DNA of 64,000 bases from Squalus acanthias (taxonomy: Eukaryota). Below the pieces are notes generated by a model, which made no database searches, was not told the origin of the DNA, and saw only the letters and a list, made by a program, of their open reading frames with translations. This document shows, in pieces, positions 5,659 to 55,220 of this stretch. The DNA is taken from positions 127,536,001 to 127,600,000 of the forward strand of contig CM059431.1 in assembly GCA_030390025.1 (NCBI GenBank). The letters run 5' to 3'. Position 1 is the stretch's first letter, and the number at the start of each line of letters is the position of its first letter. A program made the translations under genes and the position numbers.

Positions 5659-6457
5659 ATAGTATTTAAAAGGATCTGGATAAATTAACTAGATATGCTA
5701 AATTAAAGCAGATGGATAATGTGGATAATATTGATAAATGTAACATGAAACATACAATGAATGTTTTATTTCAGTAGCTCAGTGATAAATATGAAACCAG
5801 CCAAGCCTAATTCCCATCAGAATACATGGGGGGGGAGAGTTTATCGGGGGCTCTGTGGGCACATTTGGTGGCGGGTCGGGTGGGAATTTTTTTTAATAGC
5901 GTTTCGGGAACCCGCTGTCAACCCACTGCCTCGTGACTTTCCCAGATGTTGGGTCTGTCAGCGCTGAACAGACCCAACACGCAGCAGCAGGGGAGGCAAT
6001 TTAGGTCATTATGACTTTGTTAAGAGCCACTTAGAAAGTATTTTGAGCTCACCTTTAAAATTTATGAGGTCGCCCACGGGGTGCACACTGCTCGGGGATC
6101 ACGTCAGGTAAGCAGGTCGGGAGTTGTATGACCAGGGGATCATCGCATTACTTGACCGCTGCAAATGTGCTATAAAAGCTCCCATCTCACAGCTGTTCAC
6201 TTTCTAAGCTCAGAAGCTGTTGCTTACTGCATTTGGAAGACAGTTTGAGATTTATGCAGGTTGCAAGAGTTTGGAGTAAACTTTGTATCCAGTGTCACCT
6301 CATTGGACCGACCTCTTTCACCATTGACAGATCGCTTCTGTCATCACAAGTTCACCTGCCATCTATTACATCATGCGGAGATGCCGGTGTTGGACTGGGG
6401 TGGACAAAGTGCGAAGTCGCACAACACCAGGTTATAGTCCAACAGCTTTATTTGAAA

Positions 6458-17186: not shown

Positions 17187-19030
17187 GAGCTTCTACAAGT
17201 GTGTAAAAAGGAAGACAGTAGTAAAAGTAAACGTTGGTCCCTTAGAGGCTGAGACAGGAGAAATTATTTTGGGGAATAAGGAGATGGCAGAAACCTTAAA
17301 CAAATATTTTGTATCTGTCTTCACAGTAGAAGGCACAAAAGCATACCAAAAATGGTGGGGAACCAAGTGTCTAATGAGGGTGAGGAACTTAACGTAATTA
17401 ATATAAGTAGAGACAAATTACTAGAGAAACTAATGGGACTAAAAGCTGACAAATCCCCTGGACCTGATGGCCTACATTCTAGTGTTCTAAAAGAGGTGGC
17501 TGAAGAGATAATAGATGCATTGGTTTTGATCTTCTGAAATTCCGTAGATTCTAAATGGTCCAAGCAGATTGGCGGTCACAAATGTAACACTGCTATAAAA
17601 GAACGGATGGAGAGAAAAAACAGGGAACTACAGGCCAGTTAGCCTGACATCAGTCATTGGGAAAATGCTGGAATCCATTATTAAAGAAGTCATATCAGGG
17701 CACTTAAAATCATAACATGTTTAGGCAGAGTCAACATGGTTTTATGAAAGGGAAATCGTGTTTGAGAAATTTATTGGAGTTTTTTCGAGGATGTAACTAG
17801 CAGGGTAGATAAAGAGGAACCGATAGATGTAGTATATTTGGATTTCCAAAAGCTATTCGATAAGGTGCCACATAAAAGGTTATTACACAAGATTAGGGCT
17901 CATGGGGTTGGGGGTAATATAGTAGCATAGATAGAGGATTGGTTAATGGACAGAAAACAGAGAGAAGGGATAAACGGATCTTTTTCAGGTTGGCAGGCTG
18001 TAACTAGTGGGGTGCTACAAGGATCAGTGTTGGGGCCTCAGCTATTTACAATCTATATTAATGACCTAGATGAAGGGACCGAGTGTAATGTATCCAGGTT
18101 TTCTGATGATACAAAGCTAGGTGGACAGTAAGCTGTGAGGAGAACACAGAGTCTGCAAAGGGATATAGATAGATTAAGTGAGTGGGCAGTAAGTTGGCAG
18201 ATGGAGTATAATTTAGGGAAATGTGAGGTTATTCACTTTGGTAGGAAGAATAGAAAAACAGAATATTTTTTAAATGGTGAGAAACTTTCAAATGTTGGTG
18301 TTCAGAGAGATTTGGGTGTCCTTGTGCAAGAAACACAGAAAGCTAGCATGCAGGTACCGCAAGCAATAAGGAAGGCAAATGGCATGTTGGCCTTTATTGC
18401 AAGGGGGTTGAAGTATAAGGGTAAGGAAGTCTTGCTACAATTGTACAGGGCCTTGGTGAGACCACACCTGGAGTACTGTGCACAGTTTTGGTCTCCTTAT
18501 CTAAGGAAGGATATATTTGCCTTGGAGGCAGTGCAACAAATATTCACTAGATTGATTCCTCGGATGAGAGGGCTGTCCTATGATGAGAGATTGTGTAGAA
18601 TGGACGTATACTCTTTGGAGTTTAGAAGAATGTGATGTGATCTCATTGAAACATACAAGATTATGAAGGGGATTGACAGGGAAGATGCTGAGAGGTTGTT
18701 TCCCCTGGCTGGAGTGTCTAGAACTTGGGGACATAGTCTCAGGATAAGGGGTCGGCCATTTAAGACCGAGATGAGGAGGAATTTCTTCACTCAGATGGTT
18801 GTGAATCTTTGGAAATCTCTGCCCCAGAGGGCTGTGAATGCTGAGTCTTTGAGTATATTCAAGGCTGAGATAAATAGATTTTTGAACTCTAGGGGAATCA
18901 AAGGATATGGAGATTGAGCGGGAAAGTAGAGTTGAGGTCGATGATCAGCCATGATCTTATTGAATGGCGGAGCAGGCTCGAGGGGCCGTATGGCCTACTC
19001 CTGCTCCTATTTCTTATGTTCTTATGTTCT
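17187..19030 (+). mobile_element. CR1 LINE, 5'-truncated, decayed
   Basis: [52 protein letters not shown]. Tail ends in (TTCTTATG)n. Confidence 0.95.
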
Positions 19031-22861: not shown

Positions 22862-25800
22862 GCTGAGTAAACTAGCAAGAGATATGAAAGGAGATCAAAA
22901 AAGCTTCTATAGGTATGTAAAAAGGAACAGATTAGCAAAAGTAAACATGGGTCCCTTAGAGGCAGAGACAGGAGAAATTATAATGGGGAATAAGGAAATG
23001 GCAGAGACATTAAATAAATACTTCTGTATCTGTCTTCACAGTAGAAGACATGAAAACAATCCAGAAATAGTGGGGAATGAAGGGTCGAGTGAGCATGAGG
23101 AACTTAAAGGAATTAGTATTAGTAAAGAAATAGTACTGGAAAAATTAATGGGAGTAAAGCTGACAAATACCCTGGACCAGATGGGCTACATCCTAGGGTT
23201 TTAAAAGAGGTGGCTACAGACATAATGGATGCATTGGTTTTAATCTTCCAAAATTCCTGAGAATTTAGAACAGTCTCCATGGATTGGAAGGTAGCAAACA
23301 TAACCCTGTTATTCCAGAAAGGAGGGAGAGAGAAAACAGGGAACTACTGGCCAGTTAGCCAGATATTAGTCATCGAGAAAATGTTGGGATCCATTGTTAA
23401 GGACATGGTATCAGGGCACTTAGAAAATCATAATATGATTGGACAGAGTCAACACAGAATTATGAAAGGTAAATTGTGTTTGACAAATCTGTTAGAGTTT
23501 TTTAAGGTTGTAACTAACAGGGTGGAGAAGGGGAAGCCAGTAGATGTAGTCTATTTGGATTTTCAAGAAGCATTCGATAAGGTTATTACACAAGAGGTTA
23601 TTACACAAAATTAGGGCTCATGGGATTGGTGTAATATATTGGTATGGATTGAGGATTGGTTAATGGACAAAAAATAGAGGGTTAGAAATTCATGTAATTA
23701 CCGCCATTCCATAGTGCCGTGATATGGCCACAATGTTGAAATAAAAGCCATCACAAAGCAAACCTTCCAATCCAACTTTATACATCCATTCATCCAATAT
23801 GACATCAAGAAATCAAGTCATAACCTTTATTTATTCTCTTAGTGACTGTCATGTCTGTGCCTTTGCCTATCTTACTGATGTCACGCAGTGCTACCCCAGT
23901 GGCTGCAGCATGGCTGGTGGAAGGCTTGCTGACTTTCAGTGCGGGACACTGCAAATGATCTTGCTGGTCAACCTTGAAGAGCTGATGGCTGGGAGTGTGA
24001 AATGGAGTGACAATGTTTCTTCTGCTTCTTTTTCACTCTCCTCCTCCTTCTTCTTGGTCACCCATTGGCTGGGCAGGCTGCATTTCTTGGATTTGTGAAA
24101 TGAGGAAGCCACAAGGGGGGAGCTGTGGTGATGGGAGAGCGGGAAAGCAAGAGGTTCAAGCCAGAAGGAGGATAATGTATGAAGATGCCAGCATCTTTTA
24201 TCCTCTCAGCCCCGCCACTGGCCAAGGGCTCAGCCAAGTACCTGCCAAGAAGGCCAGCACCATCTCCTCCAAGGGGGTGAGGTGAGGCTAGGAATGGGGG
24301 GATGTTCCTCGTGATTGGTACAGATTGTTGGAGGTGAGTGATTGGGGGTGGAGGTTGTGCATTGAGCACTATGTGAGGCTAGTGGGGCAGTTGGTAGGAG
24401 ACGGCTTTTGAAGATGCATGCACTGACCTTTACCAGTGGTCTGAGCTAATGAAGCTTCTTTGGGCACTGGAGCCAGGTGGTGGGGGCGACACTGCTGGCA
24501 GTGATGGCCTCGGTGATCTGGTCCCACATCCTCCTTTCTGGAGGGCCTCTTGGCCTCTGTGTGTAGAGGATGTGTATTGAAGTGTTGACCCCTTGCACAA
24601 AGCTGGAGGGCTGCGTGCGAGACCCTGGCTGCCCCTTCCGTGGCTTGGTGAACCATTTGTGTTAGTGCTGAAGCAAGTTTCCCACTTGTTGAGGTTCGGA
24701 AGGGAATTCAGTTTTAAGAGCTGAATAATCGCATTCGGGACTTTTTAATGTTAACATTTTTTTTGGAAGGCAGTAAGGCTGAAAACTACATTTTTCACTG
24801 CATTTTAATTTCTATTAATTCAGAGTGCATGGCCCCTTTAATTCATAGCACTTTTAATTGCTCACAATTCCTTGCAAGTTCCACAGCCTCGATTCCAAAG
24901 GCTGTGCAAAGCTCGGACGCCACTTCAGGACGGGAACTTCAGCTCGGAGGTCTCCACTAACGTCAGCAGGAGGGCGATGCACGGAAGGTTAGCGCTGCGC
25001 TACCAATCTCCAGGCCCCCAGACTAATTTATTCCCCTTAGCGTTGCGGCCATTTTTAGCGACTGTTAACTCCAGTTGCCAGTGACATCGGCAACTTTTGT
25101 GGCGAACACAAATGTCTAGGCAAGAGAGTAGGAATAAACGGGTCTGTTTCAGGTTGGCAGGCTGTCACTAGTGGGGTGCCGCAAGGATCAGTGCTTGGGC
25201 CTCAGCTATTCACAATCTACATCAATGACTTAGATGTGGGGACCGAGTGTAATGTATCCAAGTTTGCTGACAATACAAAGCTAGGTGGGAAAGTAAGTTT
25301 TGAGGAGGATCCAAAGAGGATATAGACAGATTAAGTGAGTGGGCAAGAATGTGGCAGATGGAATATAATGTGGAGAAATGTGAAGTTATCCACTTTGGTA
25401 GGAAAAATGGAAAAGCAGAGTATTTTTTAAATGGTAAGAGACTGGGAAATATTGATATTCAGAGGGAACTGGATGACCTTGTACATGAATCAAAGAAAGT
25501 CAGCATGCAGGTACAGCAAGCAATTAGGAAAGCAAATGGTATGTTAGCCTTTATTACAAAAGGATTGGAGTATAAGAGTAAAGACGTCTTAGCTGCAATT
25601 ATATAGCACCTTGGTGAGACCACACCTGGAGTACTGTGTACAGTTTTGGTCTCCTTACCTAAGGAAGGATATACTTGCCTTAGAGGGAGTACAACAAAGT
25701 TTCACCAGACTGATTCCTGGGATGGGGGGATTGTCCTATGAAGGGAGATTGAGTAGAATAGGCCTATATTCTCTAGAGTTTAGAAGAATGACAGGTGATC

Positions 25801-26187
25801 TTATTGAAATGTATAAAATTAAGCAGCTTGACAGGGTAGATGCTGGGTGGATGTTTCCCCTGGCTGGGGAGTCTAGAACTAGGCGTCACAGTCTCAGAAT
25901 AAGTGGTTGGCCATTTAGGACTGAGATGAGGAGAAATTTCTTCCCTCAGAGGGTGGTGAATCTTTTGAATTCTCTACCCCAGAGGGCTGTGGATGCTCAG
26001 TCATTGAGTATATTCAAGACAGAGATCGATAGATTTGTGGATATTAAGGGAATCTAGGGATATGGGGCTAGGGCTAGGGCAGGAAAGTGGAGATGAGGTA
26101 GAAGATCAGCCATGATCTTATTGAATGGCGGAGCAGACCCAAAGGGCCGAATGTCCTACACTTGGTCCTATTTCTTATGTTTTTATG
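22862..26187 (+). mobile_element. CR1 LINE split by a Harbinger insertion at 23679-25122
   Basis: Collinear with 17187-19030 on both sides of the insertion. 3' tail TTCTTATGTTTTTATG. Confidence 0.93.
23679..25122 (-). mobile_element. Non-autonomous Harbinger with decayed Myb/SANT gene, nested in CR1
   Basis: Degenerate TIRs GGGTTAGAAATT and AAATGTCTAGGC. Candidate AGA TSD. Same family as 48916-51243, in the opposite orientation. Confidence 0.8.
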
Positions 26188-26799: not shown

Positions 26800-29700
26800 T
26801 CTGTGTCCCTCATTCCCTCCACTCCACCATCTGCAGCCGCTTGCTCAGTCAGTCACCACGCTCCAGACCTCTGTAATTCTCTATCCAGTGCCATCCAATC
26901 CTAGCCTCCCTATTGGCCACCCCCTTCCCAACATTTGGCCCCCGTCACCAACTCCGTTCTCTAGCCATTGCTTCCATATCCCTCCCTTGCCACAGTCTGA
27001 GGGTAAACCAGACTGTTCACAACTTCGCCAGCCTATTTGATCCTGAGCTGAGATTCCGACCCCATACACTCGACCGTATATCTACAAGAGCACAGGAGGC
27101 TTGCGCTCAGAGAGAGTGAGCTTCTGAAAGGCGTGAATTGTAAACAGAGTGAATATTTTAAAGCGGGAATTTAGTGAGAGTCGGTTCGCTGCCGTGTTCA
27201 TGCTATGGACCACCAAATAGTGAGACAGAGATGGAGGAGCAAAACTGCAAATAGATTTCAGAAAAATGTAAAAATATTAGAGTCATGATAATGGTGGACT
27301 TCAATTATCCTAATATAAACTGCGATAAAAACAGTGTGAAGGTCAAGGAGGGGTAGAAATTCCTGATATGTGTACAGGAGAACTTTCTTGATCAACATGA
27401 TTCCAACCCTATGAGGAAGGAAGCAGTACTGGATCTAGTTCTGGGTAATGAAGTTGGGCAAATGGAGCATGTTTCAGTGGGAGAGCATTTGGGATCACAA
27501 CATCATTAGGTTTAGATTTGTTATGGAAAGGGATGAGGAACAATCAAAGGTGAAGATACTCAACTAGAAGGGGGCCAATTTCAGTGAGCTGAAAAGAGAT
27601 CTGGCCCAGGTGGATTGGAAACAAAGATTAGCAGGTAAAACAGTAAATGGAGCAAAGCATTCAGGTACAGACTAGACACATTCCTATGAGGAGTAAAGGA
27701 AGGGCATCCAAAGCTAGAGCTCCCTGGATGAATAACGATATAGAGATTAAAATGAAACAGTAGAAGGAGCTTATGATAAATATCAGATTCATAATACAGT
27801 AGAGAATCAAGCAGAATAAAGAGAGTGCAGAGGAGAACTGAAAAAGGAAATAAGAGGTGCAACGAGAGTTTATTGGAAAAGATTAACAGGGTAACACAAA
27901 AGGAACACTAGTCTTTTATAAACATATAAATAGTAAAAGGGTTTTCAAAGAAAAGGTGGAGCCATTTAGGGACCAAAAAGGAAATACTCTTGTTGAGGCA
28001 GAGGACATGGCTGAGATACTAAATGAATACCTTACATCTGTCTTCACAAAACAAGAGGTTGCTGCCAATGTTACAGTAAAGGAGGAGGTAGTAGAGAAAT
28101 TAGATCGGATATAAATAAAGAGGCACTTAAAAGGCTGGCAACGTTCAAAGTAGAAACGTCACCCGCTGCAGATCGGATGATTCCTAGATTGCTGAGCAAA
28201 GTAAGGGTGACGATTTTGAAGGCTCTGGCCGTAATCTTTCAATCCTCCTTGGATAAGGGAGTGGTGACAGAGGACTGGAGGGTTGCAAATGTTACACCTC
28301 TGTTCAAAAAAGGGGAGAGTGATAAACCTGGCCACTATGGGCCAGTCAGGCTAACGTCAGTGGTGGGGAAACTTTTAGAGAAGTCAGGGACAAACTTAAC
28401 TGTCATTTGGAAAGACATGAGTTGATAAATGACAACCAGTGTGGATTTGTTAAAGGCAAATTCTGTCTGACAGACTTGATTGTGTATTTTGATGAAGTAA
28501 CGGAGAGGGTTAATGAGGGTAGTGCGGTTGATGTTGTGTATATGGACTTTCAAAAACTGTTTGATAAAGTACCATATAATAGACTTGTTAGCAAAATTGA
28601 AGCCCATGGATTAAAGAAGCAGTGGCAGCGTGGATGCAAAATTGGCTATGGGACAGAAGACAGAGAGTAGTCGTGAATGGTTATTTTTCAGACTGGAGGC
28701 AAGTATACAGTGGAGTCCCCGAGGGACCACTCTGAGGACCACTGCTCTTTTTAATATATATTGATGACCTGGACTTGGGTATACAGGGCATAATTTCAAA
28801 GTTTACGGATGATACAAAACTCAGAAATGTAGTAAACAGTGAGGGGATATTAGCAAACTTCAGGAGGACATAGACAGACTGGTGAAATGGGTAGACACAT
28901 GGCAGATGATGCAGTGAAGTGTGAAGTGATGCATTTTGGAAGGAAGAATGAGGAGAGGTAATATAAAGTAAATTGTATAATTTTAAAGGGGATGCAGAAA
29001 CAGAGAGACCTGGGGGTTTACGTACACAAATCTGTGAAGGTGGTAGGACAAGTTGATAAGGCTGTTAAAAAAGCAGATGGGACCTCTGGCTTTATAAATT
29101 GAGGAATAGAGTACAAAGGCAAAGAAGTTATGCTAAGCCTTTACAAATCACTGGTAAGGCCTCAGCTACAGTATTGTGTCCAATTCTGGGCACCACACTT
29201 TAGGAAGAATGTCAAGACCTTGGAGAAGATGCAGAGGGTATTTACTAGAATGGTACCAGGGATGAGGGACTTCAGTTATATGGAGAGATTAGAGAAGCTG
29301 GGATTGTTCCCTTTAGAGTAGAGAAAGTTAAGAGGAGATTTAATAGAGGTGTTTAAAATTTTGAGAGGTTTTCACAGAGTAAATAAGGAGAAACTGTTTC
29401 CACTGGCAGGAAGGTCGGTAACCAGCGGACACAGATTTGAAGTAATTAGAAAAGATCCAGAGAGGAATGCACTGCCTGAAAGGGTGGTGGAAGCAGATTC
29501 AATAGTAACATTCTAAAGGGATTGGATAAATACTGCTGCTGAAACACTCAGCCTGTGCCCTAACTCGCACCAAGCCCTGTTCACCCATCACCACTGTGCA
29601 TCACCTGGTCTTCAATTTTAAAATTCTCATCTTTGTGTTCAAATCCCGCCATAGCCTTGCCCCTCCCTAGTTCTGTATCCTTCTCCAGCCCTAAAACCCT

Positions 29701-30105: not shown

Positions 30106-32649
30106 GCTTTGAAATATCCTGAGACTGTTAAGCACACAATTGCAAGTTTGTCCCTTCTTTCTTTATTAGTATAGCAGAGTTAAATGTTTTCATAACACTC
30201 TCTATGTCATTCTCACACCTAAATTTCTCCAACACTTTTTCAAAACTGTTAATCAACATAACATTAACTGCTTTTTCTTGGAATCTATTATTTGTAAAGA
30301 TTTTATTGCCTTGTGGAAAAGTAATTCTTTTGGTCTCTAGGCTCATTTGAGGTTTCCTAATTGTTGTGCTCATGTACTTCAGTTCTGTGAACACGGTCTA
30401 AGTTATTATATCCTCATTTTAAATCCTTACTTTTAATATTGGAATACATATTTTGGAATACATATTCCAAAATATGTTTGTCAGTTTTTTATATTGATGC
30501 ATGATGTCTCCTCATGGATCAATACAGTAGGATTAAGTGTTTTCGTTAGTGATTAAGGATGATAACACAAATACATTCTCATTGTACTGGTTAGATATCA
30601 GTGTTGTACTGAATGACACTAAAAGTTCTTGCTAAATCTATATGTTATTCAGGGATTAATTGGATCCACTGGCATTACAATTTTACTGATTTATTAAATC
30701 CATTTGAATCATTGCTTTTACTGACTAACAGCATTTCACATGAAGTCAGATATTACCTGCACGCTGTTGGGCAAGCATTAAAATTACCACCAGGCAGATT
30801 GTAACCACCACAGGATACTAATCCACCTTTATAATCCATGCCTACACCGCTGACTGGTCACATTCTATAGGTGATTCATCTATGGTCGCAACTGTATATG
30901 AACCATTTTGTTCCATTCAGTGTTTGATTAACTTCACCTATCCTTATCCTTTTAACCTCCACCCTATTGTGAAAAGTGTAATTATCCTGCTCTTTTTGAA
31001 GAGTTAATGAGTGTAGCATTAACTGTTTATTGTCTGGGAATCTATTCCACTACACTATAGAAAAAAAAAATTCTTGTACCCAAACAAACTTAAAATTTCC
31101 TAATTTGTGTCTCATGCTCTCTAATTATGCAGAGTCTAAGATAATTGTGATATCCTTATGTTAAATCCTGAATACTGTCAATATGGACAATATTTATTTT
31201 CGAGTTTTTTTATCTCATACTGGGTCATTCAGTTCAAAAATGAACTTGGCCTAGATAGTGTGTATCCTGTCCACCTTATGATCCAAAATAGTGAAATGGC
31301 CCAGTACTCAGTCACAGTTCTGTTACTCTCTGTGAACAAAACAGCAGATTTGCCTAAAACTTCTGGGCCTTGCTAGCCACAAATAATTTTCATTACAGGG
31401 TAAACCAATAGCCCACTTACACTGGCTCACTCAAAAAGTCTCATGGAACACCGTGGAGAGGCAGTTCAGCCCAATCCTCATTCCCCCATCATGCTTGGAA
31501 ACTGGTTAATCCCTTTTTTGTGAGAATGGACCAGTTTTAAAGTGCAGAGACTGCTGGGAAAGTGCTCAGTCATGTTCCTTGAATCTCTGCGGCAGGACAC
31601 ACATTATGGAGGCTAGGAGGAGGAGGTTAAGATATGTGACAGGGAGGAGAGCAGAGAAAGATATCAGGAAGGAAAACAATGATCTAAGCATCAGCCAAGT
31701 CATGCCAGCAATATAAATCTCTGGGGGAGAAATTCATTACAGCCCAGGAATGGGCGGTAACTTTTGAAAAGTTTGAGAATTAGCGCCAGGCTCTAATGCT
31801 TCAGACTGCATGCTAAATTCAGTTTCATTGCACAAAGAAAGGATTAGAGTGGTAAATCAAGCACTAATGGCCTAGTTCAGTGTTGTTAAACGCAAAGCAC
31901 TTTTTTCCAGTTCTTAAAGGGGAGGTTCATTGATGCTGCAGAACCTCATTCTCATCATTGCTGGCTGTGCAGCCGTCTCAGCCAGCAGCAGCAAGTCAAG
32001 GAGAAGGAGCCAGATGACTCAAGCAGCCATAATGATGGCAGATGCATGCCCCAGGGAGAGAGCCCGCAGATTCTGCGACCATGCATTGGAGGCGTTGGTG
32101 TTCGCAGTGCAAAGACGGAGGGTGGTGCTCTACCCGACAATTGGCAGGAAGCCCTCGCAACAAGTCTTCCACACCATGGGGAAGGAGGTAGCCCAGCATG
32201 TCTCGGGCAGCACTGTGCTCCCCAGGACCCACACACAGTGCAGGAAGCAATTTAAATACCTCACTCGTGTGGTCAGGGTGAGTCAATGCTTCAACAAATG
32301 CTACATACCACCATCTGAACCACAGTCTGCAAACACTGCCCCAAGCACCATACCCCCAACACTCACACACCAACAATCTCTATCTACCAACATTCACACC
32401 CACATCTCACACCTTGCACACAATGAGAGCTGTTCAACTATGGCAGGCACATCACCAAAACACGTTGCTTCACACTCAATCACACACTTTCCTCTCTCTT
32501 GCAGGCCAAGGTGGCTCACAACAGGAGTGAGCAGGAGCCCACAGGTGGGGGACAAGCCGACACCCAACCACTGTCTGAGCTCGAGACTTGAATGCTGTAG
32601 ATTATTGGGGGCCAGGTGGCGGGCTCCGTGGCCACCGTCGATGTTGACC

Positions 32650-33788
32650 TGAAGGGATATTTACTCGTCCTAGCCCCTTTAGAGCTACCCGGATTAGGCG
32701 TATTTCTCAGACGTTCACTTTCAACTAAAGTTTGAGGTAGCCGAATGCTAAAGACGCTTAATTGGGTCTAAAGGTCCGGGCCATCTCTCCCTAAAGGAAA
32801 GAAACAACCCGAGAATGTTACTGTCCTCCAGATAGCGCTTTTAATAAGTTTAGCTAGACTGTAACGTCCCAGATATTATTAGGGTCTGGAAAACTCCCTC
32901 AGAATTCTGTAACTCTTCACCAAAGAGTGTACAGAAATTGAGTTCGTGAGTTATTGATACAGAAGACTTATGCAAGACAATTCTAAAAATATATAGAGAT
33001 TTATTAAAGAACCGACATGCAATTTACAATTGGTGAATCAGTCAATCGCAACATTAACAGTTCTAAAAAGAGAAAAAATACTATCTTTTTAACAGAGAAT
33101 CTTACTTTTAAATCTTAACTTCGCTACAGTATTACAGTTCTTAAAGGTTTCTATACAGGATATCCATCCATATCAAATACCTTTGATCCCCGAGGTACAA
33201 AGACTTGGAGACTACAGAGCCACCTTGAAGCCGAGAATCGCTTTGCCCGATTAAAGCGAGTCTGATATCCCATTTGAAACTTCAATATTTATACCTTTTT
33301 CCAGTGGTATTTCCTTTAAAGTTTCTGCTGATGCAAGTCAATTATCCCTATTCATCTTTCTGCTGACCTCTGCAATTCTTACTGCTACATCAGCCAGAAT
33401 CTTGTCTCATCTCCAGGTGTTTTAGGGTCACCATATAGAATGGTGTGAAAGGCAGGTGTTCCTTATTTTATGTCATCTTTATGAGGGCAGATGTTCCTTA
33501 TCTTATGTGCCATCTTTATGAAGTTTAAATTAGAACACCTTATCCAGTGTGAACCATTGTTTTTGTTCCCAAAGGTCAGCCTGTTGGAGCCATGCACCTT
33601 CTGTTTCAATAAGGTTATTTATTCAGGGTCAACAACTGTCTTATCTCAATAGCCAGAATTCTTTCACAGCTATTTCATAGTTAGGTTTCTAAATTTCCAA
33701 ACCCAGTTTGTCATGTTTTAATAAGGCCAGAATTCTTTCATAAAATAGTGTATTTTTCTGAATAGGTTATATAGCTTATTCCTTCACA
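32650..33788 (-). repeat. 3' LTR of the foamy-like provirus (1139 bp)
   Basis: Starts TGTGAAGG immediately after the purine tract AAGAGGGGTG (33798-33789) and ends CCCTTCA. TATAAA at 33293-33288, AATAAA at 33005-33000, tandem repeats in U3 at about 33453-33523. Confidence 0.88.
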
Positions 33789-34212
33789 CACCCCTCTTGA
33801 CCGAAAAATGAGCTTGAGCATCAAGGGCAGAGTCTGGTCAATGTTTCAAATAAGGTTACAATAGTACATTAATTTCACGAGAGTCACAAGAGCCCAATCA
33901 TGTGCTACATGAAAATTCCTTTAAGTCATCCCAGGACAATGTTTTGCCTTATTTTAAATTGAACAGAAATTAAAAGAATGATAGGTACATTGTCATGCAA
34001 TTAGCAAAACAACATGTAATTAGAATGTCCAATTGGCAGATGTACGTTCTGTAGAGGTGAGTTATTCATACGAGTCAAGGAGACGTCATTTGGAGCTGGC
34101 TGAAGCTTGACACGCTGTTCCATTGATCCAGCGTGAGGACAGATTCTTGTTTTCGTAAAGTCCTTGCCAGAAGCTCAGTTGATTCCTTCTCCATCCGCAG
34201 TGTTTTCCTCCT

Positions 34213-34338
34213 TCATTGAAGTAACTTGTTGGTCTTTACTTGTTCTGGTTGTGGCTTTTTGCGAATCCAATTTCTAAGGCGTTTCCAAGCTGGGTCTTGG
34301 AAGACAGTGTACGACTGCACCTTGTATTGTTCCTCCAT
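34213..34338 (-). pseudogene. Probable N-terminal stub of env, overlapping the pol 3' end
   Basis: The ATG lies in the AAT-GGA (NG) codons shortly after DNLK of integrase, in the +1 frame. Reads MEEQYKVQSYTVFQDPAWKRLRNWIRKKPQ... Confidence 0.45.
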
Positions 34339-36163
34339 TTCGGTATCCCGCAGGACATCTTTTTAGATTGTCTATGGAGACAGTTTTAAAAATGTGCTTG
34401 CCATTCGGCAAATTAATATGTATTTCAACAGTTCTTTCGTTAATAACGGAACGTATTTGAACAGGTTTTTTCCACTTAGGTCTTAAACCAGAATTTTGCT
34501 TGAACTTCTTTTCCTGTACCCATTCTCCTACTAGGGGTTGCCATGCTTTGTTTGTTAATTTTTTCTGCCTATTTGTCTCCCTTATCCTCTGATCAATTTG
34601 ATGTATCTCCTCTGTTACTACTTTTTTTTAAATCTAACTGTCGCTGTTGGGTCAAGGAATCAGAGAGTGTAGAGGCAATAAAAGAACTATGAGTATGCGG
34701 TGTATGCATCTCAACCCCATACATTAGATAATATGAAGTTTTAGGGGACACTGTCCCTGATGCAGATGCGGGCACATTATTAAGTGATAGCTGCAGCTCC
34801 GGAATGACGGTGGTCCACTTATTTCCCCTGATTCTCAACAGTTTGACCAATAGCTTTTTTACTTCCTGGTTTTTACGTTTCACCAGCCCCGCTGATTGCG
34901 GATGACGTGGCGTGCTGTGCTGTAACCCAATCCCCCTTTGTTCGCAGTAGTCTTTGAAGACCTTGGAGACAAAGACTCCGCCTTGATCGGAGTGTAAGAT
35001 TTTGGGTGCACCAGCTACAGTAATTATGTCAGTAATAGCATTGGCGAGTGCGTTTTCCGAAACAGTTTTTGTGGGGACCAGCCAGCAGAAGGAAGTGCAT
35101 CCACCTACACAAACGAGAACATGTCTGTATCCCAAAGATGGGAGAAGTGTTCCAATGAAGTCAATAATTAATTTTCCCATTGGCTTATCAGGTTTCACAG
35201 GAGCCAATGGTGGCCTAATTAGTGATGACTTATTGGTTAAATTGCATGACTCACAATTTGCCACGTATGTTTTACAGGCCTTAAACATGCCTGGCCACTA
35301 ATATAAGGGAGTCAATTTGCAGAATGTTGTTCTGGCACCACAATGTGCTTGACCTATGGCCTCGTGAGCTTCTTTTACAAGCTGTTCTCGTTTGTGTCTC
35401 GGGGGTACCTCTCGGTTTACCTTGGGCAACTTAACTAGCACAATACCAGTAGGGGTTTCCGAGTAAAAGTACTTTGATGGATATCCTGGTGGATTCTCTT
35501 TTGTTGGGTCTAATAGCTGAATCAGTTCCTCATCCTGATTAGCTTCCCATTCTGCACCAGTGATAACACTAATATTAGCAGGCCCCTCCCGAGGGGGTAT
35601 CATGCAGACCAAACGTTTCACTTGTTCGTCTGCAAGACTGTTGCCTTTTGAGTGTACTGACCCAGTGGTATTCCCATTTACATGAATCACCGGACAATTC
35701 TGTTTCTCCATCCTCGAACGGAGAACGTCTTCCCACAATGACTTATGTTTTATGGGTTTACCCTTATGATTGGTAAGTTTGTATGTTCGCAGAAAACTAG
35801 ATCATGGTTATATCCTCTTTTACAACAGTCACTATCTGTATAGATTAGTGTGGGTTTAACAGGGTCTGTCTTTTCTAAAGCATATCGTAGTGCTGCGGCT
35901 TCAGCATATTGCGCTGTCTTATGACTAAGGGGTATGGACAGTAATTCTTCTGGATAAAAAGAATAGGAATCTCAAAGTCCCTACTACTAACCCCATCCCA
36001 GCTGACGATTGTTGGGATGTTCCTTTTTTAATCGTCATTGACGATCCATCACAGTAAATGTCTTGATGGTAGCAATCGTTTGAATTTCCTAATAAAAATA
36101 CTTGGCCATTTCCGACAGGGTTTGCCATTTTGTCAGGATAAAAGTGGGTAGGGTAGAAGGTAA
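34274..36163 (-). pseudogene. pol: Foamy-like pol remnant: RNase H and integrase
   Basis: RNase H: IYCDGSS, TAQYAE, IYTDSD, KPIKHKSLW, VHSKGNSLAD. Integrase: GYPSKY, AH...AHCG...CESC, IDFIG, HSDQG, HSTPRHPQSAGLVKRKN, WQPLVGEWVQE, LRPKWKKP, TVSIDNLK. Stops and frameshifts present; catalytic E replaced by K. Confidence 0.93.
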
Positions 36164-37969
36164 TGTATTTTTCTGAATAGGTTATGTGGCTTATTCCTTC
36201 ACAGACCCCCCTTGGGGACAACAACAGTATGTTTATCCCTACTCCTTCTTCTCACATCCCACTTTCCCCTCAGCCCACAAGCCTTTCGCACTTCCCAGCT
36301 AATCATGCTCTATGCATGCATTTCTCCCTTCCTGCCCCCTCCCCTCACCTTAACCCAAATCTTGTGCCTTTATGCTTTCAGATAATGAGCAAGCACCTGA
36401 GCAGCCTGTCCCTGATGGTACCGTAGAGAGCGAGGCGGGAGTAGAGAAGGAGGAAGAACACACCACGTCACTGCATCTCTCACCCACAGGCACCAGCTCA
36501 GATACTGGCACAACGCGTTCTTTAGAGGCTAGTATAGTAGCGGGATCTGCACAGGGTGATGCACCGTGGGCAAACAGGCTGCAGCAAGGCCAGGGGGAAA
36601 GGATAGCTCGGGACTCAGATGAGGACTTCGATGGGGTGGCCTGAAGAAAAAGGGTGATGGGCATGCAGACAGTGATGATAGGTGCAATGGCAAGGGTGCC
36701 TGAGAGCCTCTCGGCATTGTTAAGGAGCATGGAGGAGTCCGCCTCCAACATTGCACAGAGCTTTGCGCACACCATGGAGCCCATCATTTCCAGTCTGCAA
36801 AGGATGGTAGACTCCCAGAGAGACCGTGGTGACCCAGACCTGATGTTGCATGTGATGAGGGATCTGGCAGCTTCTATTGCAGCACAGGCAGAGGTGATGC
36901 AATGTCTTAGTGCTATAATGCAGTCTATGCTTGGTGGCATTCAATCTCAGACTGCTCTCATGCAGTCTCAGCTTAATGCAATGCAAGCTCTGACTGCTGT
37001 CATCGTGGCTGGGTCTACCACCGTCGACCAGGGCTTTCACGCTGTCACAGCAACAGATTGCTAGGGATGCTGAGGTGCTGCCCCGGGGGACTGTCAGTGG
37101 GTCAGTGGAGCAGGAATCTTCTGTCCTCTCTCAGGATGACAGCATTCCTGATCCCACCACTGCCACTCTGCCATTGCCCTTGTCGCTGCCTGTCATCCAG
37201 CCAGTTCAGACTGCTGCCGCCCATGCTGAGGTGGTGCAGTCTACAGCCGGGCCTTCCAGGCCCAGAGCTGGTCGAGGGCATCCTGCAAGGCCATCTGAAG
37301 TCTCCCGCACGGACACGCAGCAGCCTTCCACCAGCCCTGCTGCAGCCACTGGGCATACACTTCGTAGGAGCCCTAGAGTAGGCAAAGGCACTGTACGACA
37401 GGCACTAAGGGATTCCACTACTTCACACTATTATCCAAGGGAAGAACATAAAAATACAAAACAACAACTGGGAGAGGGATCTTGGGATCTGGTAGTATTA
37501 GGGAGGATGGTCTTAGGCACTTGGAGCATTTGGGTGGTTCTGGAATCAGGGAGCACTGGAAATATGATCTAGGGGTTTGTGTGCACTGAGAAGGGATTCC
37601 AGGAACTGGGAATGGGGGAAAGATTTGGAGAGTGGTATGGCAGCACTGGGGAGGCTTTTTGGAGTATTGGGGGGTTGAGTCTAGCAGTATAGGGGGTTGC
37701 TGGGATCTGATAATATTGGGGGCAGCAGTGTCTCATTTTCTTGTTGGGGGAGTGGGCACGGGAGTATAGGACCTGAAGTGTCCTTAGCTCTTTTTAAAGT
37801 ATCAGATCCCAAACCATACCATATCATATTCCTATCAATCAGCCTAATTGACAGTGCTCTTATACTCATAAATACCCACTTCACTGCTTTTCCTATTGTC
37901 ATTAGGTTTCCGTCTTTACATTCCTGCCTTAAAGAATTTCAGAATACATTTTCTGCTTGTTAAAATTAA

Positions 37970-41453: not shown

Positions 41454-44400
41454 GGGCTCGATTTTGTCATTGGGGCGGGCTGGGGGCGTGTCATCCGCTT
41501 TTCGTGTTAGCCACCCGACTCCAATTTGATGTGGGAAAAATATGCGATTTTCCCCTAATTGGGCAATTGATTTCCAGCGTGTGGGAACCCCTGGCCCAAT
41601 TAGTCTTTCCATTCTGAAACTCGCCTCCGATGACGTCATCAATGCTACTGGATTTAAGGCCAGCAAGCAGCCTTGCTTCTTCTGCAGACTGCAAACCTTT
41701 TGGCCTTTGCTCTGATAGTTTCTTCCAGGCAAACTGTCCACAGTAGACCTAAGTCTGCACCGAGGTTTGATGACGCCGCCCTGCAAGCTCTGGTGGAGGG
41801 AGCAAGATGGAATAAGGAGGTGCACTTCCCTTCTTCAGGGAGGAAGAAGCCTCCCCAGCAGACGAAGGCTGTGTGGATGCAAGTGGCCCAGGAGGTCAAC
41901 TCCTTATCTATGTGCTGCAGAACCTGGCTGCAGTGCAGGAAGAGGTTTCATGACCTTCTGCGCACTGGAAAAGTAAGTGTGACTTTCCCATCACCCTCAA
42001 TCTGATCCCCATTGCCTCTCCTCACCAGCACTCAGCTTTGACAATCTCTTCCTCCACATCCCACTTGACACTGACATCCCTGCACCCTTACCCATTCCCT
42101 CTCTCTGTATGTTCACATTCACTTAACTATTCGACTATGCAGCCCTCACACTCCTTATCGCTGTGATGCTATGAAAACAACTTATAACACACAGGGAGAG
42201 CCCTTGGTCTTGCCACCTCACTGAATCTTTGTCTCCTTCTAGGCATCTATGCTATGGATTCTCTACACTCACTCCTTCATTCTCACTCAAACTCCAATTG
42301 TCTCCCTCATTGCAGGAAAAGATAGCTCACAATAAGAGGGAAAGAGCGAGGACAGGAGGAGGGCCACCCTCAGTAGCCCAGCTCACCCCCTGGGAGGAGG
42401 CGGCCCTGGAGATCGTGGGAGTGGAGGACGATGTGCAAGTGGGGGACGGACAGATGGGTGCATCAGAGCAAGCTGGTGACAGAATAGTTTTTCATCTCTC
42501 TCATTGACATTGCATGAGTCACTGATAATGATTCTGAAGCTCTAACAGATTGACTTATGATCATCTGCAATATTCAATATGCATGTAACCTTGGCCTCAC
42601 ATCTCTGACTCTTTCCTCTACTCCCCCACAGGACCATCGAAAGCCCCCGTCCCCACTATCCAGGAGGAACAGCCTGAGCCTCCAGACACCTCAGAGGAAG
42701 CTGCAACCTCTGAGGGCGCAGAGTCAGCAGAATTCAGCACACCCAGCACCAGCACAGACACTCACACCTCGGTGGTACCTTCGCGAGATAGTGTAGTGTT
42801 GTCACCTGATGTATCACAGCTCACAAGTGAGCATCAACAGATGGTGGAGACAGGGACAGCAGCAGAGAGTCCTAGTCGGAAGGCGCAGGACTCTGCCAGC
42901 TCGGCTCAGCTGCATGTCAACCCTCTGCCTCTGGGTCCATCCAGAAGAAGAGCGGTGCTGGAACTCCAGGAAGAGGTGCAGGAGTCTCTGGCAGGTTTTG
43001 TCTCCAGGGTCACTGCGAGTGTGGAGCGAATGGAGGAGTCCATCGCTAACATGAGCAGAGCCTTTGTGGAGGCGTTGGCGCATGAATGCATCACCACGGA
43101 AAAGATGGCGACCTCCGTGGAAAGGATGGCTACCTCTATGGTAAGGCTGGCTACTGTAGAGGAGAGGATGGCTACGTCCATCGAGGAGCTTAGTGGCCAG
43201 GGTATGGAAAACACAGTCATTGTTCAGAATAGACTGACATCTCTTAAGGAGCGATGGTCAGCTATTGAGCAAACAAACCAGACCTTCAGGCAAGTCCTCG
43301 GGAGTAGGACTTCCAGTACAGAAAGGAGTCCTCATGGCCCCCCTGAAGTGCAGCAAGGTGCTGTCAAGCCACTTGCTAGCTCTGAAGTGGGGCTGACCCA
43401 TGAGAGGGATGTTGGTGGCAGACAACAAGGGAATGGGGGCTCCTCTCCAAGCGCTCACACGACCATGCCACTGCAAAGTCCTCGGTCAGAGCCCCACCAG
43501 AGTCCCCACCCAACTGAGATCAGCGTCTCAAACCCTGCACAGCTGCAGGAGCAGCAGACTGTTGCCGAGCCCTCACAGGCTCGCAACCCCAGAGGACACC
43601 CGCCAAAAGTGTCGAGACAGGAGCAGCAAGAAAGTGAGCAAGGGGCCTCCACATCTGCTGAAGCCACAGGGGAAGCACCACGTAGGAGCACGTGTAAGAG
43701 GAAGATAATGCACAAGTAGTCACAAGGGTAGTCACTTGGGTGAAATGTCATGTTTAATGTTGAAAAGCCATCAGGTAGTTATTGTAAATAAAAAATTCTG
43801 ATGGCAACTGTTGCAGTTGTGGCATCTGTCATATTGCTAATGGGACTTCCACACTGAGGGCTTAGGATGACTTGCAATTGTCAGTATGGTGGTCAGAGTG
43901 ATAGGAATCCGCAGGTTCTTGGCCATTGTCGATGGTCTGATAAGAAGGTGCGAGGCAAAAGTGTTTGATTGTGCAGGCTAAGCAAATCTGGCCAAGAGGA
44001 GTGCGTCCCTTGCATCCCGGGCAGCAATGTGGTCGCGCGCTGGCGCCTTCTGGCCTGTGCAGCTTCAGGTGGGTGAGCAGCAGCTTGGCGCTCCTGTTGT
44101 TGCTGCTGCTGTTGGTGGTGCTGTTGTTCATGGATCTGTTGCTGCCACGGCTGGTCTTCGTCCGAATCTGATGTCCAGGAGGAAAGGAAATAAATGGTTC
44201 CCATGCTTCTGGTATATGCCTCAGTTGAGGAAGCACTCATTCAAGGTGGCGAGAGGGGTTTCCCAGGAGGTCACACTGGAGATGGGTGTCAGGCTCCAAA
44301 CTTCCACAACACTGAGTATGCCTGCTAAAAGTTCCCCCAGACCTGAGACAACAAAGTTCTGCCACCTGCAAATGATGATTGCTGAAAACTCCTTTTTAAT

Positions 44401-51955: not shown

Positions 51956-54900
51956 AGGGGGCTAATTTCCCCACTGTAACACCAGTAGTTTAGGCACTAA
52001 GGAGTCTCCGAGATAGCCAAGTTGGGTTTTGAGCTGCAACACCTGGTCAGCCCGCCTTTAGCACAAAGACGCCATCTTGGTAAAGGAGTTTAAGTGCGCG
52101 CTAGGAACAGCCGGCCCGAGGATGATTAAGCCTCTGATTACCAATTAAATTTGCTGCTAACACTCATTAAAGAGATGGCACATCATTTTGTTGGCTAGCG
52201 TTGCAATTGTCGACCTCTCCGAACAACGACCAGCTGAACACGGGTAAAGAGGTTGTTGGTGAGGATTGCGAGTGTTACTTACAGCCATGCTCAGCTTTCA
52301 CTGTTCACTTGCTGATTGAGATCGACTGACTACACTGCATTTGAAGAGGACTTTTGATACACATCGGGAGACTTTCTGGGGCACTTTGTCAAGACTTCTC
52401 GAACACTCTATCAATATTTTTTCCAGAAATTCTCTGAGGACTTCACCTTAAGAGAGCGAGTGCTGTGCTACTGTACCTTATTGGAGACCTTATAGAAGTC
52501 AGTAGGAGAAAGGGAGTGCTTGGTCATGGGGACCTTGCAAGGTGTCCCCTTGGTCTGGAAGAGAAATGGAAGGAGATGAGGCCATGAAGAGCAGCACCAG
52601 CTGCTGGAGGAGAGAGGGACAGGAGGGACAGGAGGGTGAGGAGGGCTGCAGATTCATGGTGACTTGCTGCATGCTCCACAATCTGGTGATCATGAGTGAC
52701 CAGCCGTTACCACGAGCAATTGTGCCAGAAGGTCAAGCTCAGGAGCCACAGGAAGAGGAGGAGAAAGAGGAGGAGGAGGTTGAGGAGGAGGTGGAAGGTG
52801 AGAGTTCCAGGTAGACAGCTCGCACCTGGGAGGGACGCTCGGTGCCGTCTAATTAAAGACCGCTTTTGAGAGATGTCTTCCACAATCAGACTTCAGAGTA
52901 CGGTTGCCACATGCCTTACCTTCAGGGCTGAGGATCCATTAAGAAGTTCACCATCTGCACTAAATCCTTTCAACCCCTTCCTCATGAAGAACACAATAAA
53001 AAAAACACCAATTTGACCACTACCCAATTACCATAATCATTCTTTATCTAGAGCAAAAACAAACAATGAAAATATGACACAGCCAACAGCACTTGCAAAT
53101 ATTGAAGTATTCACCCTGGTGCTTACCCTTACTGGCTATCCTATAAGTGCTCTTGCCGACTCTGGTGCTTCTACAAAGTACATTCCGAGTGGCAGCAGCA
53201 CACAAGTTGGATGGCTGCTGAGAATCTGAAGAGGGCAGTTCAGATGCCCTCCTGCGATGCCCTCGAGAGGCTGTGGGCCTCAGACTGCACCAACTCAGCA
53301 GTCTGAGCCGCCTGGCTGACAGGCAACTGCAAGGCCAATGGTAGAGTGGTGGGCGAGGGAGCAGCAATGCTGCCATCCAGAGAGAGGCCAGTAGGTTCCT
53401 GCTCCATGATTCCCACGCCACTACCACGGTGCGTCTGTTCAGCCAGCCCAGTGATCTGCTGGAGGACAGATCTCTGGGCAGCTGAGACATTCTGCAAGCC
53501 CCTTTCAACTTCCATGGAAACTGCTGTGACTGTAGTGGAAGCTGTGAGCTCAGTCATCAGATGCTGCATGATGTTGGGCTCTACAGGTCGCTGGATGGAA
53601 TTGGCCAGCCTCTCCACGCTGGTGAGGATGGGTTCCAGGCTCTGTGTCCAACCATGGACCAAGCTGGAGGTGGACTCCTCCATTCCCCTGGCCACAACCT
53701 GTAAGCTTTCAGGCAGGCTGTCCATTGCACCAAGTATTTGCTTTGTCAAACCCATCAGCCTTCTTTTGAAGGTTGGCCCTGCGAGATTCATATCCACCTC
53801 TTCCACAGCAGAAATAGTATGTGATTTTGCCTCCGGCAAGGTGCCACCTGCGGTGTCCCTTCCACCAGGCGTGCTAACTGTCCATTAGCGTCTGCTGCGT
53901 GCCACTGTGAGTATTCATGTTCTACCCTAACCTCTAAATTACATGTGGTGCCGGTTGCTGAGCTGGCTCCTGTGACCATGGCAACGGTTGGCACATTGCC
54001 ATCTTCCTCGGTCTCCTCCTCCTCCTACTCTTGCTCGGGGGAGAAAGGTGGCTCTTCCTCCTCCTCCAGTTCCTCGGGAGCGGGGGGGGGGGGGCGAGGT
54101 GGATCTTGCTCCTGGAAGCCTGCAATGATAAGGCTAGAAGGGTTAGTGTGCAGTGCGTGTAGCCACTATAGGAGGATGTGTATGATGAGGCCATATGGAG
54201 CTTGTGAGTGAGGATAGGTTTGGAGCATTAGGGATCAGGAATAGCTGTGCATCTGCAAGGAAGCTGGAGAAGCCACATACCTCTAGGCGAGATGTCCACT
54301 GCTCTGCCTGTGGCCACGGCGTCTGCCACTCCTCTCCCGATTACCACCAGCACTGTCTCCTCAAGGGGAGTGATGTCAAGGAGTCATGCTTCCCCTCTCC
54401 GGTCAGGTCCTGCTGGTGCCTGTTATGAACTATCTTATCCTGGAAGAGAAAGGGTGGTGATTGTGAATGATTGTATTGCCACGTATGTTTGTGTGTGTGT
54501 GTGTGTTGCCTCACATGGTTGAAGAGCTGTGAGATGTGTCTGAGGTGTGAGTAGTGCCTGTGAAAGATGCAATAGTGTGGGTTGTGTGACTGACAGTGTA
54601 TCATTAGATGCTGGATACAGTGTGTTTTGGTTGAGATGCTGGTGGTGATGCAGTTATTGAGAAGTGTGTTTGTGAGATGAGATCTTACTTTGACCACTCG
54701 TGTCAAATCATTAATTTTTTGTAGCACTGGAGCCATGTCCTGGCGGGCAGTACTCCTGGCTGTGACATCCTCAGCGATCTCCTCCCTCATCTTATGCTTT
54801 TGTTGCCTCTGTGACCTCCGTCCCCCCTGCGTGTACAGGATACCCCTCCTCCGCTGCACCTCCTCCACCAGGACCTCCAGTCTGAGAACCTGTGAGCCCT

Positions 54901-55220
54901 CTCCCTCGATCCCTGAGCCATCCTGTGAAGTGCCATTGTCCTGCTCCTTCAGTTTCGCTGTCAGCCAGCGCACTCCAGACCTTCAGTGGAAGTGGATGCG
55001 TGGAGGCTACATTCACCACTTCAAGAAAATTGCTCCTAATCAGCGCTTGAGTGCTAAACATTCAGGTCTCCATTTTAGTGCCTCCAGGCACGTTTAAACC
55101 ATAACAATCAGCAACTAGCCCCAAAATTGTGGGCTAAATCCAGACTCTTAACCAGGCACGTCTTATTCGCACAGCACTCACTTAGCGCCTGTTTTCACCC
55201 TTTCTCCAAAAAAACCCTTA
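51956..55220. mobile_element. Harbinger element: truncated transposase remnant (+, about 52450-52870) and decayed Myb/SANT gene (-, about 53100-54930)
   Basis: Plus strand: VTCCMLHNLVI with an acidic tail. Minus strand: LEVLVEEVQRRRGILY...EEIAEDVTARS...NDLTRVVK, then a GTAAG donor. Confidence 0.82.

Follow-up and report, generated by a model that had tools for sequence, protein, structure and literature searches.

A dead copy of a probably non-autonomous deletion derivative from a foamy-like retrovirus family of an elasmobranch genome

What kind of element occupies positions 32646-36207 of the 64,000-nucleotide stretch of DNA analysed here (hereafter the window), and how did it come by its reduced form? 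The original prediction described the locus as an endogenous foamy-like retrovirus in a probable shark genome with both integration ends preserved, and listed a GACC target-site duplication (TSD), a complete 3′ long terminal repeat (LTR), a polypurine tract, and RNase H plus integrase. All of these were found in place, on the minus strand. Our analysis indicates that a non-autonomous deletion derivative, belonging to a family of foamy-like endogenous retroviruses (ERVs), very probably inserted here in the germline of an elasmobranch (shark-like) host and is now dead. Coordinates are window positions, and the element reads from 36207 to 32646; its features are as follows.

32646-32649, no strand assigned: 3′ copy of the TSD, GACC on the plus strand by direct reading, present once in paralogous empty sites
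32650-33788, minus strand: complete 3′ LTR of 1139 bp with TG...CA ends, its limits taken from six solo LTRs with duplications
33005-33000, minus strand: candidate AATAAA signal within the LTR, recognised as a motif by sequence only
33293-33288, minus strand: candidate TATAAA box within the LTR, recognised in the same way
33789-33798, minus strand: polypurine tract AAGAGGGG plus two bases (purine run 33798-33791), placed as in the relative L039
33799-34276, minus strand: spacer of about 0.48 kb between the end of pol and the polypurine tract, from comparison with L023 and the C20 provirus
34277-34627, minus strand: integrase C-terminal SH3 domain, its frame shifted relative to the core (Pfam SH3_11; prototype foamy virus integrase in the PDB)
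34622-34629, minus strand: run of eight A, the site of the integrase frameshift, from sequence reading and Pol alignment
34630-35543, minus strand: integrase N-terminal extension, zinc-binding domain and catalytic core (prototype foamy virus integrase 3l2q; Pfam rve and Integrase_H2C2)
35544-36071, minus strand: RNase H, Pol residues 561 to about 735 of a 1153-residue relative (tblastn; PDB; weak Pfam RNase_H)
36072-36128, minus strand: gag codons 1-19 (start codon ATG, 36128-36126), joined in frame to Pol residue 561, the junction of the derivative
36129-36136, minus strand: last 8 bases of the 5′ leader, from the L039 alignment
36137-36156, minus strand: 20-base filler at a private second deletion, from the L039 alignment
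36157-36203, minus strand: 5′ LTR stub, LTR bases 1-47, a repeat of the LTR start
36204-36207, no strand assigned: 5′ copy of the TSD, GACC on the plus strand, from direct reading and empty sites

Read in the direction of the element (33788-32650), the LTR opens TGTGAAGG and closes CCCTTCA, and the purine run AAGAGGGG ends two bases before the LTR start. Within U3, at 33451-33521, stand two to three copies of a ~35-bp unit (repeat families D3, D5 and D7), which may be repeated promoter or enhancer elements. The window copy has no match to env; in env-bearing relatives, about 3.2 kb of env lies at the position of the spacer.

Does the locus represent a clean insertion? The GACC tetramer flanks both ends of the element (32646-32649 and 36204-36207), and a 4-bp match taken alone would arise by chance in 1 of 256 cases. 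Both flanks are parts of one host repeat of high copy number: in the 3.71-Gb assembly that holds the window, searches with the flanks gave 4987 and 7080 first-look candidates. An empty site was found in all four uninterrupted paralogues of this repeat that were fetched (L034-L037), where the tetramer, or a one-base variant of it, is present once. Elsewhere in the family, five of six solo LTRs are flanked by perfect 4-bp duplications and the remaining one by a duplication with a single mismatch, and a complete variant copy, L039, is flanked by ctat on each side. The flank upstream of the 5′ stub resembles the polypurine tract at nine of ten bases, a pattern for which a rearranged tandem element was considered; the four paralogues rule this out. 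Because all four read through without interruption, the purine-rich flank is host sequence and the site is a clean insertion. The claim that both integration ends are preserved thus holds in that the paralogous empty sites define the ends of the insertion, although what remains of the 5′ end is a 47-bp LTR stub; the 4-bp duplication and the LTR of more than 1 kb, cited as fitting spumaviruses, were confirmed. The host repeat itself lies at 31918-32652 and 36354-37064 on the plus strand with long open frames, and similar frames elsewhere in the window match Myb/SANT-like DNA-binding domains (54341-54982, minus strand).

To which group of retroelements do the coding remains belong? Among Pfam families, the integrase pieces of the window copy matched rve (41.5 bits, cut-off 32.6) and SH3_11 (48.8 bits, cut-off 25), while RNase_H and Integrase_H2C2 scored under their cut-offs in this broken copy and far above them in an open relative. 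When the integrase read-through, with X at the stop, was compared with PDB chains using HMMER, it matched prototype foamy virus (PFV) integrase 3l2q at E 2.4e-62 (query 87-385, chain 9-297), an alignment that takes in the N-terminal extension, the zinc-binding domain and the core; next came Ty3 (E 7e-12) and the cores of human immunodeficiency virus and human T-cell leukaemia virus (near 1e-6). All five PDB matches of the C-terminal piece were to PFV integrase (E 7e-11), and all five of the RNase H piece were to foamy virus chains of protease, reverse transcriptase (RT) and RNase H. A PFV-type integrase architecture, consisting of the N-terminal extension, zinc-binding domain, D,D,E core and SH3 C-terminal domain, is therefore present in the inactivated window copy. 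The PFV motif pairs given in the original prediction are all visible in the HMMER alignments to solved PFV chains, namely those of the N-terminal extension, the core and STP.HPQS, TVSIDNLK in the C-terminal domain, and GN.LAD in RNase H.

Database searches with the open Pol (1153 residues) of a full-length relative in the same assembly, L021, gave a consistent picture. The top match was simian foamy virus Pol (39% identity over 92% of the length, E 6.6e-223), followed by feline foamy virus (37%), an unnamed 1687-residue protein designated P0009 (35%) and a newt protein (31%); taken together, simian and feline foamy Pol matched at 37-39% identity over 92-94% of the length (E 1e-204 to 1e-223), and Gypsy-like proteins matched only near 1e-51. 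A HMMER pass over 1.84 billion representatives returned the same order, and none of these representatives was 50% or more identical to L021 Pol. The closest chondrichthyan proteins were an RT fragment of Scyliorhinus torazame (41%) and a fragment of Callorhinchus milii (35%). In one annotated S. torazame protein (P0274, 891 residues), a foamy-like RT fragment is followed up with a PRDM PR/SET domain in the same chain; a gene model wrongly drawn across an ERV insertion is the probable cause, the alternative being a real fusion.

We then asked whether phylogenies would place the element among foamy viruses, or instead among Ty3/Gypsy retrotransposons or in the gamma/epsilon or class II groups of ERVs, an assignment for which some features speak: Integrase_H2C2 and rve are common to Gypsy elements, an in-frame stop between gag and pro-pol recalls gamma- and epsilonretroviruses, and most copies lack env. 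In a Pol tree (33 rows, 1166 columns, quick search, with support from the Shimodaira-Hasegawa-like approximate likelihood ratio test, SH-aLRT, only), the window copy groups with L021 and a second full-length relative, L023 (100), within an 18-row foamy clade (SH-aLRT 100) that is apart from Gypsy rows, from a Xenopus-type group and from rows whose integrase C-terminal domain is of the murine leukaemia virus (MLV) type. Inside that clade the family pairs with P0009 and a catshark fragment (90), and a starred clade (95) comprises the family, a frog lineage and the mammalian foamy viruses, with salamander and chimaera rows outside it. An integrase-only tree (28 rows, 401 columns, careful search, five rows without integrase dropped) recovered a 14-row foamy clade (100/100) and left the order within it open. 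Both trees set the element apart with full support from Gypsy and MLV-type integrase C-terminal rows, so that a grouping of the integrase with Gypsy or orthoretroviruses, named beforehand as the result that would count against a foamy identity, was tested and did not appear. Gypsy-like proteins are moreover some 170 orders of magnitude worse as matches than foamy Pol, and spumavirus Gag, protease and Env families were found in relatives; a non-foamy identity is in our view extremely unlikely. The label 'foamy-like' is supported by PDB matches, best database matches, spumavirus Pfam families, a tRNA-Lys(CUU) primer site and two trees.

What did the complete members of this family look like? A search of the assembly with the window LTR, proposed at the outset as a route to full-length copies, returned 5757 first-look candidates; 35 of the 40 other scored rows match over the full length at 92-95%. 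The full-length relatives L021 and L023 measure about 8.7 kb. Their order is LTR, leader, gag, pol, about 0.6 kb and LTR, leaving no space for env, and the full-length layout comprises an LTR, a tRNA-Lys(CUU) primer site, gag of about 525 codons, a TGA, an in-frame pro-pol of about 1200 codons, about 0.6 kb and an LTR. In L021 and L023, Pfam reported Gag_FV_central (48.7 and 51.7 bits, cut-off 30), Spuma_A9PTase (30.4 bits, cut-off 21), RVT_1, RNase_H, Integrase_H2C2, rve and SH3_11, and no zinc knuckle (zf-CCHC) was reported in their frames. The spumavirus Gag and A9 protease present in these relatives are deleted from the window copy. Self-comparison of L021 showed a ladder of matches with an offset of about 35 bases upstream of the gag start (reverse strand, 1-2613), a pattern suggestive of tandemly arranged ~35-bp units within or next to the 5′ LTR of that copy.

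The family, of which the window holds one degraded copy, is abundant, a point that the original prediction did not include. With DNA queries of equal length from a relative, the integrase region yielded 524 first-look candidates and the RT region 165, and with the LTR search these counts point to hundreds of internal copies and thousands of LTRs, mostly solo. The first-look count by protein was 14,885 but probably takes in other integrase families as well, so DNA counts were preferred. In public sequencing runs under at least four organism labels, each with 473 to 2656 contigs at least 99% alike, all 30 bins of the window were covered, albeit by short repeat contigs; since contigs this similar cover all bins, the family or very close relatives are present in the sources behind those labels. 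None of the public runs contained half of the sampled words of the window, and no RNA run was among the holders.

Primer usage and env provide further links to foamy viruses. The primer site TGGCGCCCAACGTG, or a near variant, lies two bases past the 5′ LTR in nine relatives and is deleted from the window copy; its 15-base complement occurs 302 times in the genome compared with 9 times for a reversed control, and is the 3′ end of a tRNA-Lys(CTT) gene in nine of ten fetched loci. Foamy viruses prime with tRNA-Lys1,2, as stated in passages of two papers on these viruses (PMC5035957, PMC3185757). Foamy_virus_ENV (PF03408) had 11 matches in the genome, of up to 87.8 bits, and two sets of these lie immediately 3′ of pol copies of the family. 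In one provirus, on contig C20, about 3.2 kb of env pieces separate pol from the LTR, and the gag-pol of this provirus is 85-92% identical to that of the env-less L023. Foamy Env is thus rare in the family and most copies are env-less; given the 85-92% identity between the two forms, the abundant env-less form derives from an env-bearing foamy-like virus. LTR-LTR distances of three relatives are 0.033-0.040. Under a rate of 5e-10 substitutions per site per year, which is applied to a catshark in Table S7 of PMC10699275, these three insertions are roughly 33-40 million years old, a rough figure obtained with a borrowed rate.

Does the coding layout of the family nevertheless set it apart from foamy viruses? 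The gag start and pol are in the same frame in six of the nine relatives in which both are visible, and 13 of 14 copies have a TGA at one shared codon position, some 22 codons ahead of the protease domain, the exception being the query copy. A pol overlapping gag in a different frame, a membership feature of the foamy group, was not found in the family copies, whose layout was read from DNA; exogenous foamy Pol is expressed separately, from an overlapping frame, according to the relevant passage of PMC3196705. A GC-rich hairpin starts one base past the gag TGA in relatives (L051-L062 and L021; for example L060:1780-1869), and the 90-nucleotide fold there does not exceed shuffled sequences in stability (z -0.91), so no readthrough signal is claimed.

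These observations raise the alternative that the family is a separate lineage beside the Spumaretrovirinae, with foamy-type proteins and an orthoretrovirus-like Gag-Pro-Pol made by TGA readthrough. In its favour are the in-frame TGA in 13 of 14 copies, the Gag-Pol-like length (1687 residues) of the nearest unnamed relative, P0009, and an identity to exogenous foamy viruses of just 37-39%. No transactivator gene turned up either, in a family whose env-less copies have about 0.6 kb after pol and in which the ~1 kb stretch between env and LTR of the C20 provirus was not analysed. The Pol tree argues the other way, in that its starred clade joins the family with mammalian foamy viruses and excludes the salamander and chimaera rows; in addition, the mode of Pol expression is not readable from DNA, and the hairpin after the TGA is no stabler than shuffled sequence. 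We consider a lineage outside the Spumaretrovirinae unlikely, while giving it some weight.

If the family is foamy-like, how did the window copy come to lack most of its genes? Aligned by tblastn to the open Pol of the relative, the window copy covers residues 561-1153 only. The RNase H and integrase of the original prediction are both present, but the coding part begins at Pol residue 561 and is not a simple truncation. Upstream of this residue and in frame with it are gag codons 1-19, which correspond to the gag N-terminus of four full-length relatives, so that the derivative consists of Gag codons 1-19 plus Pol 561-1153, with everything from gag codon 20 through Pol 560 missing. A 154-base query across the junction gave 643 first-look candidates, and all 39 of the other scored matches span it without a gap at 92-95%, on many chromosomes. 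The same internal deletion is therefore present at many separate sites, and the derivative keeps LTRs and cis signals but lacks proteins for replication. L039 is a complete example, with LTRs of 1132 and 1138 bp (Kimura two-parameter distance 0.040), 258 bp of primer site and leader, the fused frame, the spacer, the polypurine tract and its own TSD. A different deletion was observed at the C4 locus (L032 and L033, minus strand), where L023 positions 3661-5947 are missing, a stretch that runs from the 3′ part of gag through protease and RT into the start of RNase H; this copy retains the integrase region and the C-terminal part of a foamy Env.

These junction data bear directly on whether a full-length provirus was inserted here and suffered every deletion in place, including the loss of gag, protease and RT. 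Decay at the locus did take place, since one private deletion after insertion removed sequence of the 5′ LTR, primer site and leader. The junction between Gag 19 and Pol 561, however, recurs gapless at all 39 other scored loci on many chromosomes, and L039 has the same junction within its own 4-bp duplication, which makes loss of all these genes in place very improbable. A further alternative is that the frame of Gag 19, RNase H and integrase is a gene retained by the host, for example an integrase-derived restriction factor. The in-frame fusion and the larger number of first-look candidates for the integrase region than for the RT region are what such a gene might leave behind; the frame of the window copy is nonetheless interrupted at four places, and derivative copies have LTRs and their own duplications, as insertions do. 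Retention as a host gene is likewise highly unlikely in our judgement.

The preferred explanation remains a derivative that spread as such. Because it multiplied without gag, protease and RT of its own, proteins from full-length relatives would have been required, and the excess of integrase over RT candidates (524 to 165), a rough count, fits this picture. The derivative still has R-U5 and the primer site, the leader with the start of gag, 1.78 kb at the 3′ end of pol, and the polypurine tract followed by the LTR. In foamy virus vectors, the counterparts of these parts would be the required cis-acting sequences CAS-I, CAS-II and CAS-III. Passages in PMC5035957 and PMC3185757 describe CAS-II as about 1.8-2 kb of 3′ pol that is unique to foamy viruses, and report that env-deficient PFV retrotransposes intracellularly, a route by which the env-less form could have spread.

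The window copy itself has decayed beyond the shared deletion. Its reading frame is interrupted at four places by three frameshifts and one stop: two frameshifts in RNase H (near 35970 and 35800), an in-frame TAG in integrase at 35300-35298, and a shift of the integrase frame in the eight-A run at 34629-34622. The third position of the integrase catalytic triad is not conserved. The private deletion runs from LTR position 48 to 258 bases past the LTR, equivalent to 1342 bp of L039, and left a 20-base filler; with it went the primer binding site and the greater part of both the 5′ LTR and the leader. Judged from its sequence, this copy can encode nothing functional and has no 5′ promoter. The 47-base stub, with two differences in its first 40 bases, is too short for dating the copy.

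Taken together, we infer the following course of events. An env-bearing foamy-like virus would have entered the germline, lost env and then spread by intracellular retrotransposition. A derivative lacking gag codon 20 through Pol 560 would have arisen among its descendants and been copied in trans by the Gag and Pol of full-length relatives. The later events are shown by the locus itself: a foamy-type integrase put the DNA of one such derivative, already without these parts, into a copy of the host repeat, making the 4-bp duplication, and after insertion the window copy lost a further 1.34 kb and gained three frameshifts and a stop.

Several points weigh against this interpretation. The copy numbers are first-look candidate counts and not validated copies. 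The one-frame gag-TGA-pro-pol arrangement, as it appears in the copies, is unlike that of exogenous foamy viruses. Trans-mobilisation and the analogy with cis-acting sequences are drawn from architecture and from the literature on mammalian foamy viruses, and the C4 locus, which may be a second independent derivative keeping 3′ pol, is a single anecdote. The branching within the foamy clade is not firm, given the open forks of the integrase tree and the SH-aLRT-only support of the Pol tree, and the outgroup retroviruses of the trees were labelled by Pfam content, with no named ERV-L, lokiretrovirus or epsilonretrovirus rows. Lastly, the novelty of the family is plausible, the family being set apart from published chondrichthyan foamy-like ERVs by their descriptions and not by consensus sequences.

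How does the family compare with known systems? With the exogenous foamy viruses (prototype/simian and feline), nearly all of whose hallmarks it retains, it shares the order of A9 protease, RT, RNase H and integrase, the N-terminal extension and SH3 C-terminal domain of integrase, a Gag central domain without a zinc knuckle, Env (in rare relatives only), a tRNA-Lys1,2 primer site, a 4-bp duplication and an LTR of more than 1 kb. It differs from them in that its Pol is 37-39% identical to theirs and in being endogenous, multi-copy, mostly env-less and of one-frame gag-TGA-pro-pol layout. Neither a transactivator gene nor an internal promoter was identified in it, in an analysis that made no search aimed at either. 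The foamy-like ERVs (FLERVs) of fish and amphibians (CmiFLERV, ERV-Spuma.0-Sca, salamander and teleost FLERVs, and CoeEFV) are likewise endogenous foamy relatives in non-mammalian vertebrates, and teleost FLERVs also have a tRNA-Lys primer site (in the relevant text of PMC5512871). For cartilaginous fishes, the same text describes CmiFLERV of C. milii as having only pol detectable, and the corresponding part of PMC10699275 gives ERV-Spuma.0-Sca of the small-spotted catshark as having 'no Gag or Env domains'; the 12 species screened, as that part presents them, include no squalomorph. Compared with these chondrichthyan elements, known from such descriptions as pol only, the present family has recognisable Gag, protease, Pol and Env. 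In the literature searched, we found no description of the family, of an env-less foamy-type expansion in a shark, or of a natural derivative retaining the cis-acting sequences. The suggestion of an undescribed lineage was accordingly graded plausible, with no protein in the two large collections searched more than 41% identical and only pol reported in the chondrichthyan literature as far as these sources describe it.

The derivative also has parallels outside foamy viruses. MusD and ETn are an autonomous/non-autonomous ERV pair in which the deleted member is copied by the proteins of full-length relatives, and work by Magiorkinis in 2012 is said to have linked the loss of env in 'superspreader' ERVs to expansion within the genome. 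The present family resembles both, in its env loss and expansion and in having a deleted derivative with the same LTR. Unlike MusD/ETn-type pairs, its derivative retains 1.78 kb of 3′ pol coding sequence and not merely non-coding ends. Minimal foamy vectors, as described in the vector passages of this literature, offer a further comparison: the present derivative retains an equivalent R-U5 and primer site, a leader with the gag start, some 1.8 kb from the 3′ end of pol, and a polypurine tract with LTR. It differs from those vectors in being natural and known from sequence alone, and in having 57 nucleotides of gag compared with about 200 in CAS-I.

What is the host, and what surrounds the element? 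The assembly has a single-exon RAG1, whose closest counterpart among those compared, from Heterodontus francisci, is 90% identical; identity is 87% with Rhincodon typus and 86% with each of Scyliorhinus torazame and Amblyraja radiata. No entry of the collection was an exact match to this RAG1, the assembly gave no match to cytochrome b, and a protein atlas went no further than 'Chordata'. A RAG1 tree places the host in Elasmobranchii (100/100), outside three rays and skates (100/100) and outside three galeomorph sharks (96/97); this fits a shark of a lineage outside the sampled ones, in keeping with the 'probable shark' of the original prediction, without proving it. Across the 64-kb window we saw repeats only and no single-copy host gene. 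A Harbinger-type DDE_Tnp_4 transposase fragment lies at the window start (1-504, plus strand), and fragments resembling the reverse transcriptase of long interspersed nuclear elements are found on the plus strand at 14871-16945, 18132-18635, 25593-26057 and 28027-28425. A 376-residue frame at 42589-43719 had no match at E 1e-10 in an index of 5.8 billion proteins. An unrelated second retroelement extends from 61191-63657 to the window end on the plus strand, with a gag-like CCHC frame, an aspartic protease and RT (Pfam zf-CCHC, RVP and RVT_1), and is cut by the window end.

What does the family mean for the history of foamy viruses? These viruses are cited for a marine origin of retroviruses that dates back more than 450 million years. 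Their record is weakest in cartilaginous fishes, for which the papers found report pol fragments only. A shark-like genome with hundreds of copies, and with Gag, protease, Pol, Env and a primer site, would provide a full-length anchor for trees and dating; in the words of a 2022 review (PMC8922424), foamy fossils are 'extremely rare'. Two natural experiments come with the family, an env-less foamy-type expansion and an amplified derivative that mirrors the cis-acting regions of laboratory vectors, and the in-frame gag-TGA-pro-pol of the family bears on when foamy viruses acquired their separate Pol expression. More tentatively, the family could be an elasmobranch foamy-type lineage that made Pol from a single-frame gag-TGA-pro-pol, became an env-less superspreader and gave rise to a natural CAS-I/II/III 'minimal vector', a combined reading that we regard as possible but doubtful. 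If true, single-frame Pol would link the expression strategies of spumaviruses and orthoretroviruses, and the requirement for a packaging signal in 3′ pol would be common to a lineage in a shark genome and the mammalian foamy viruses.

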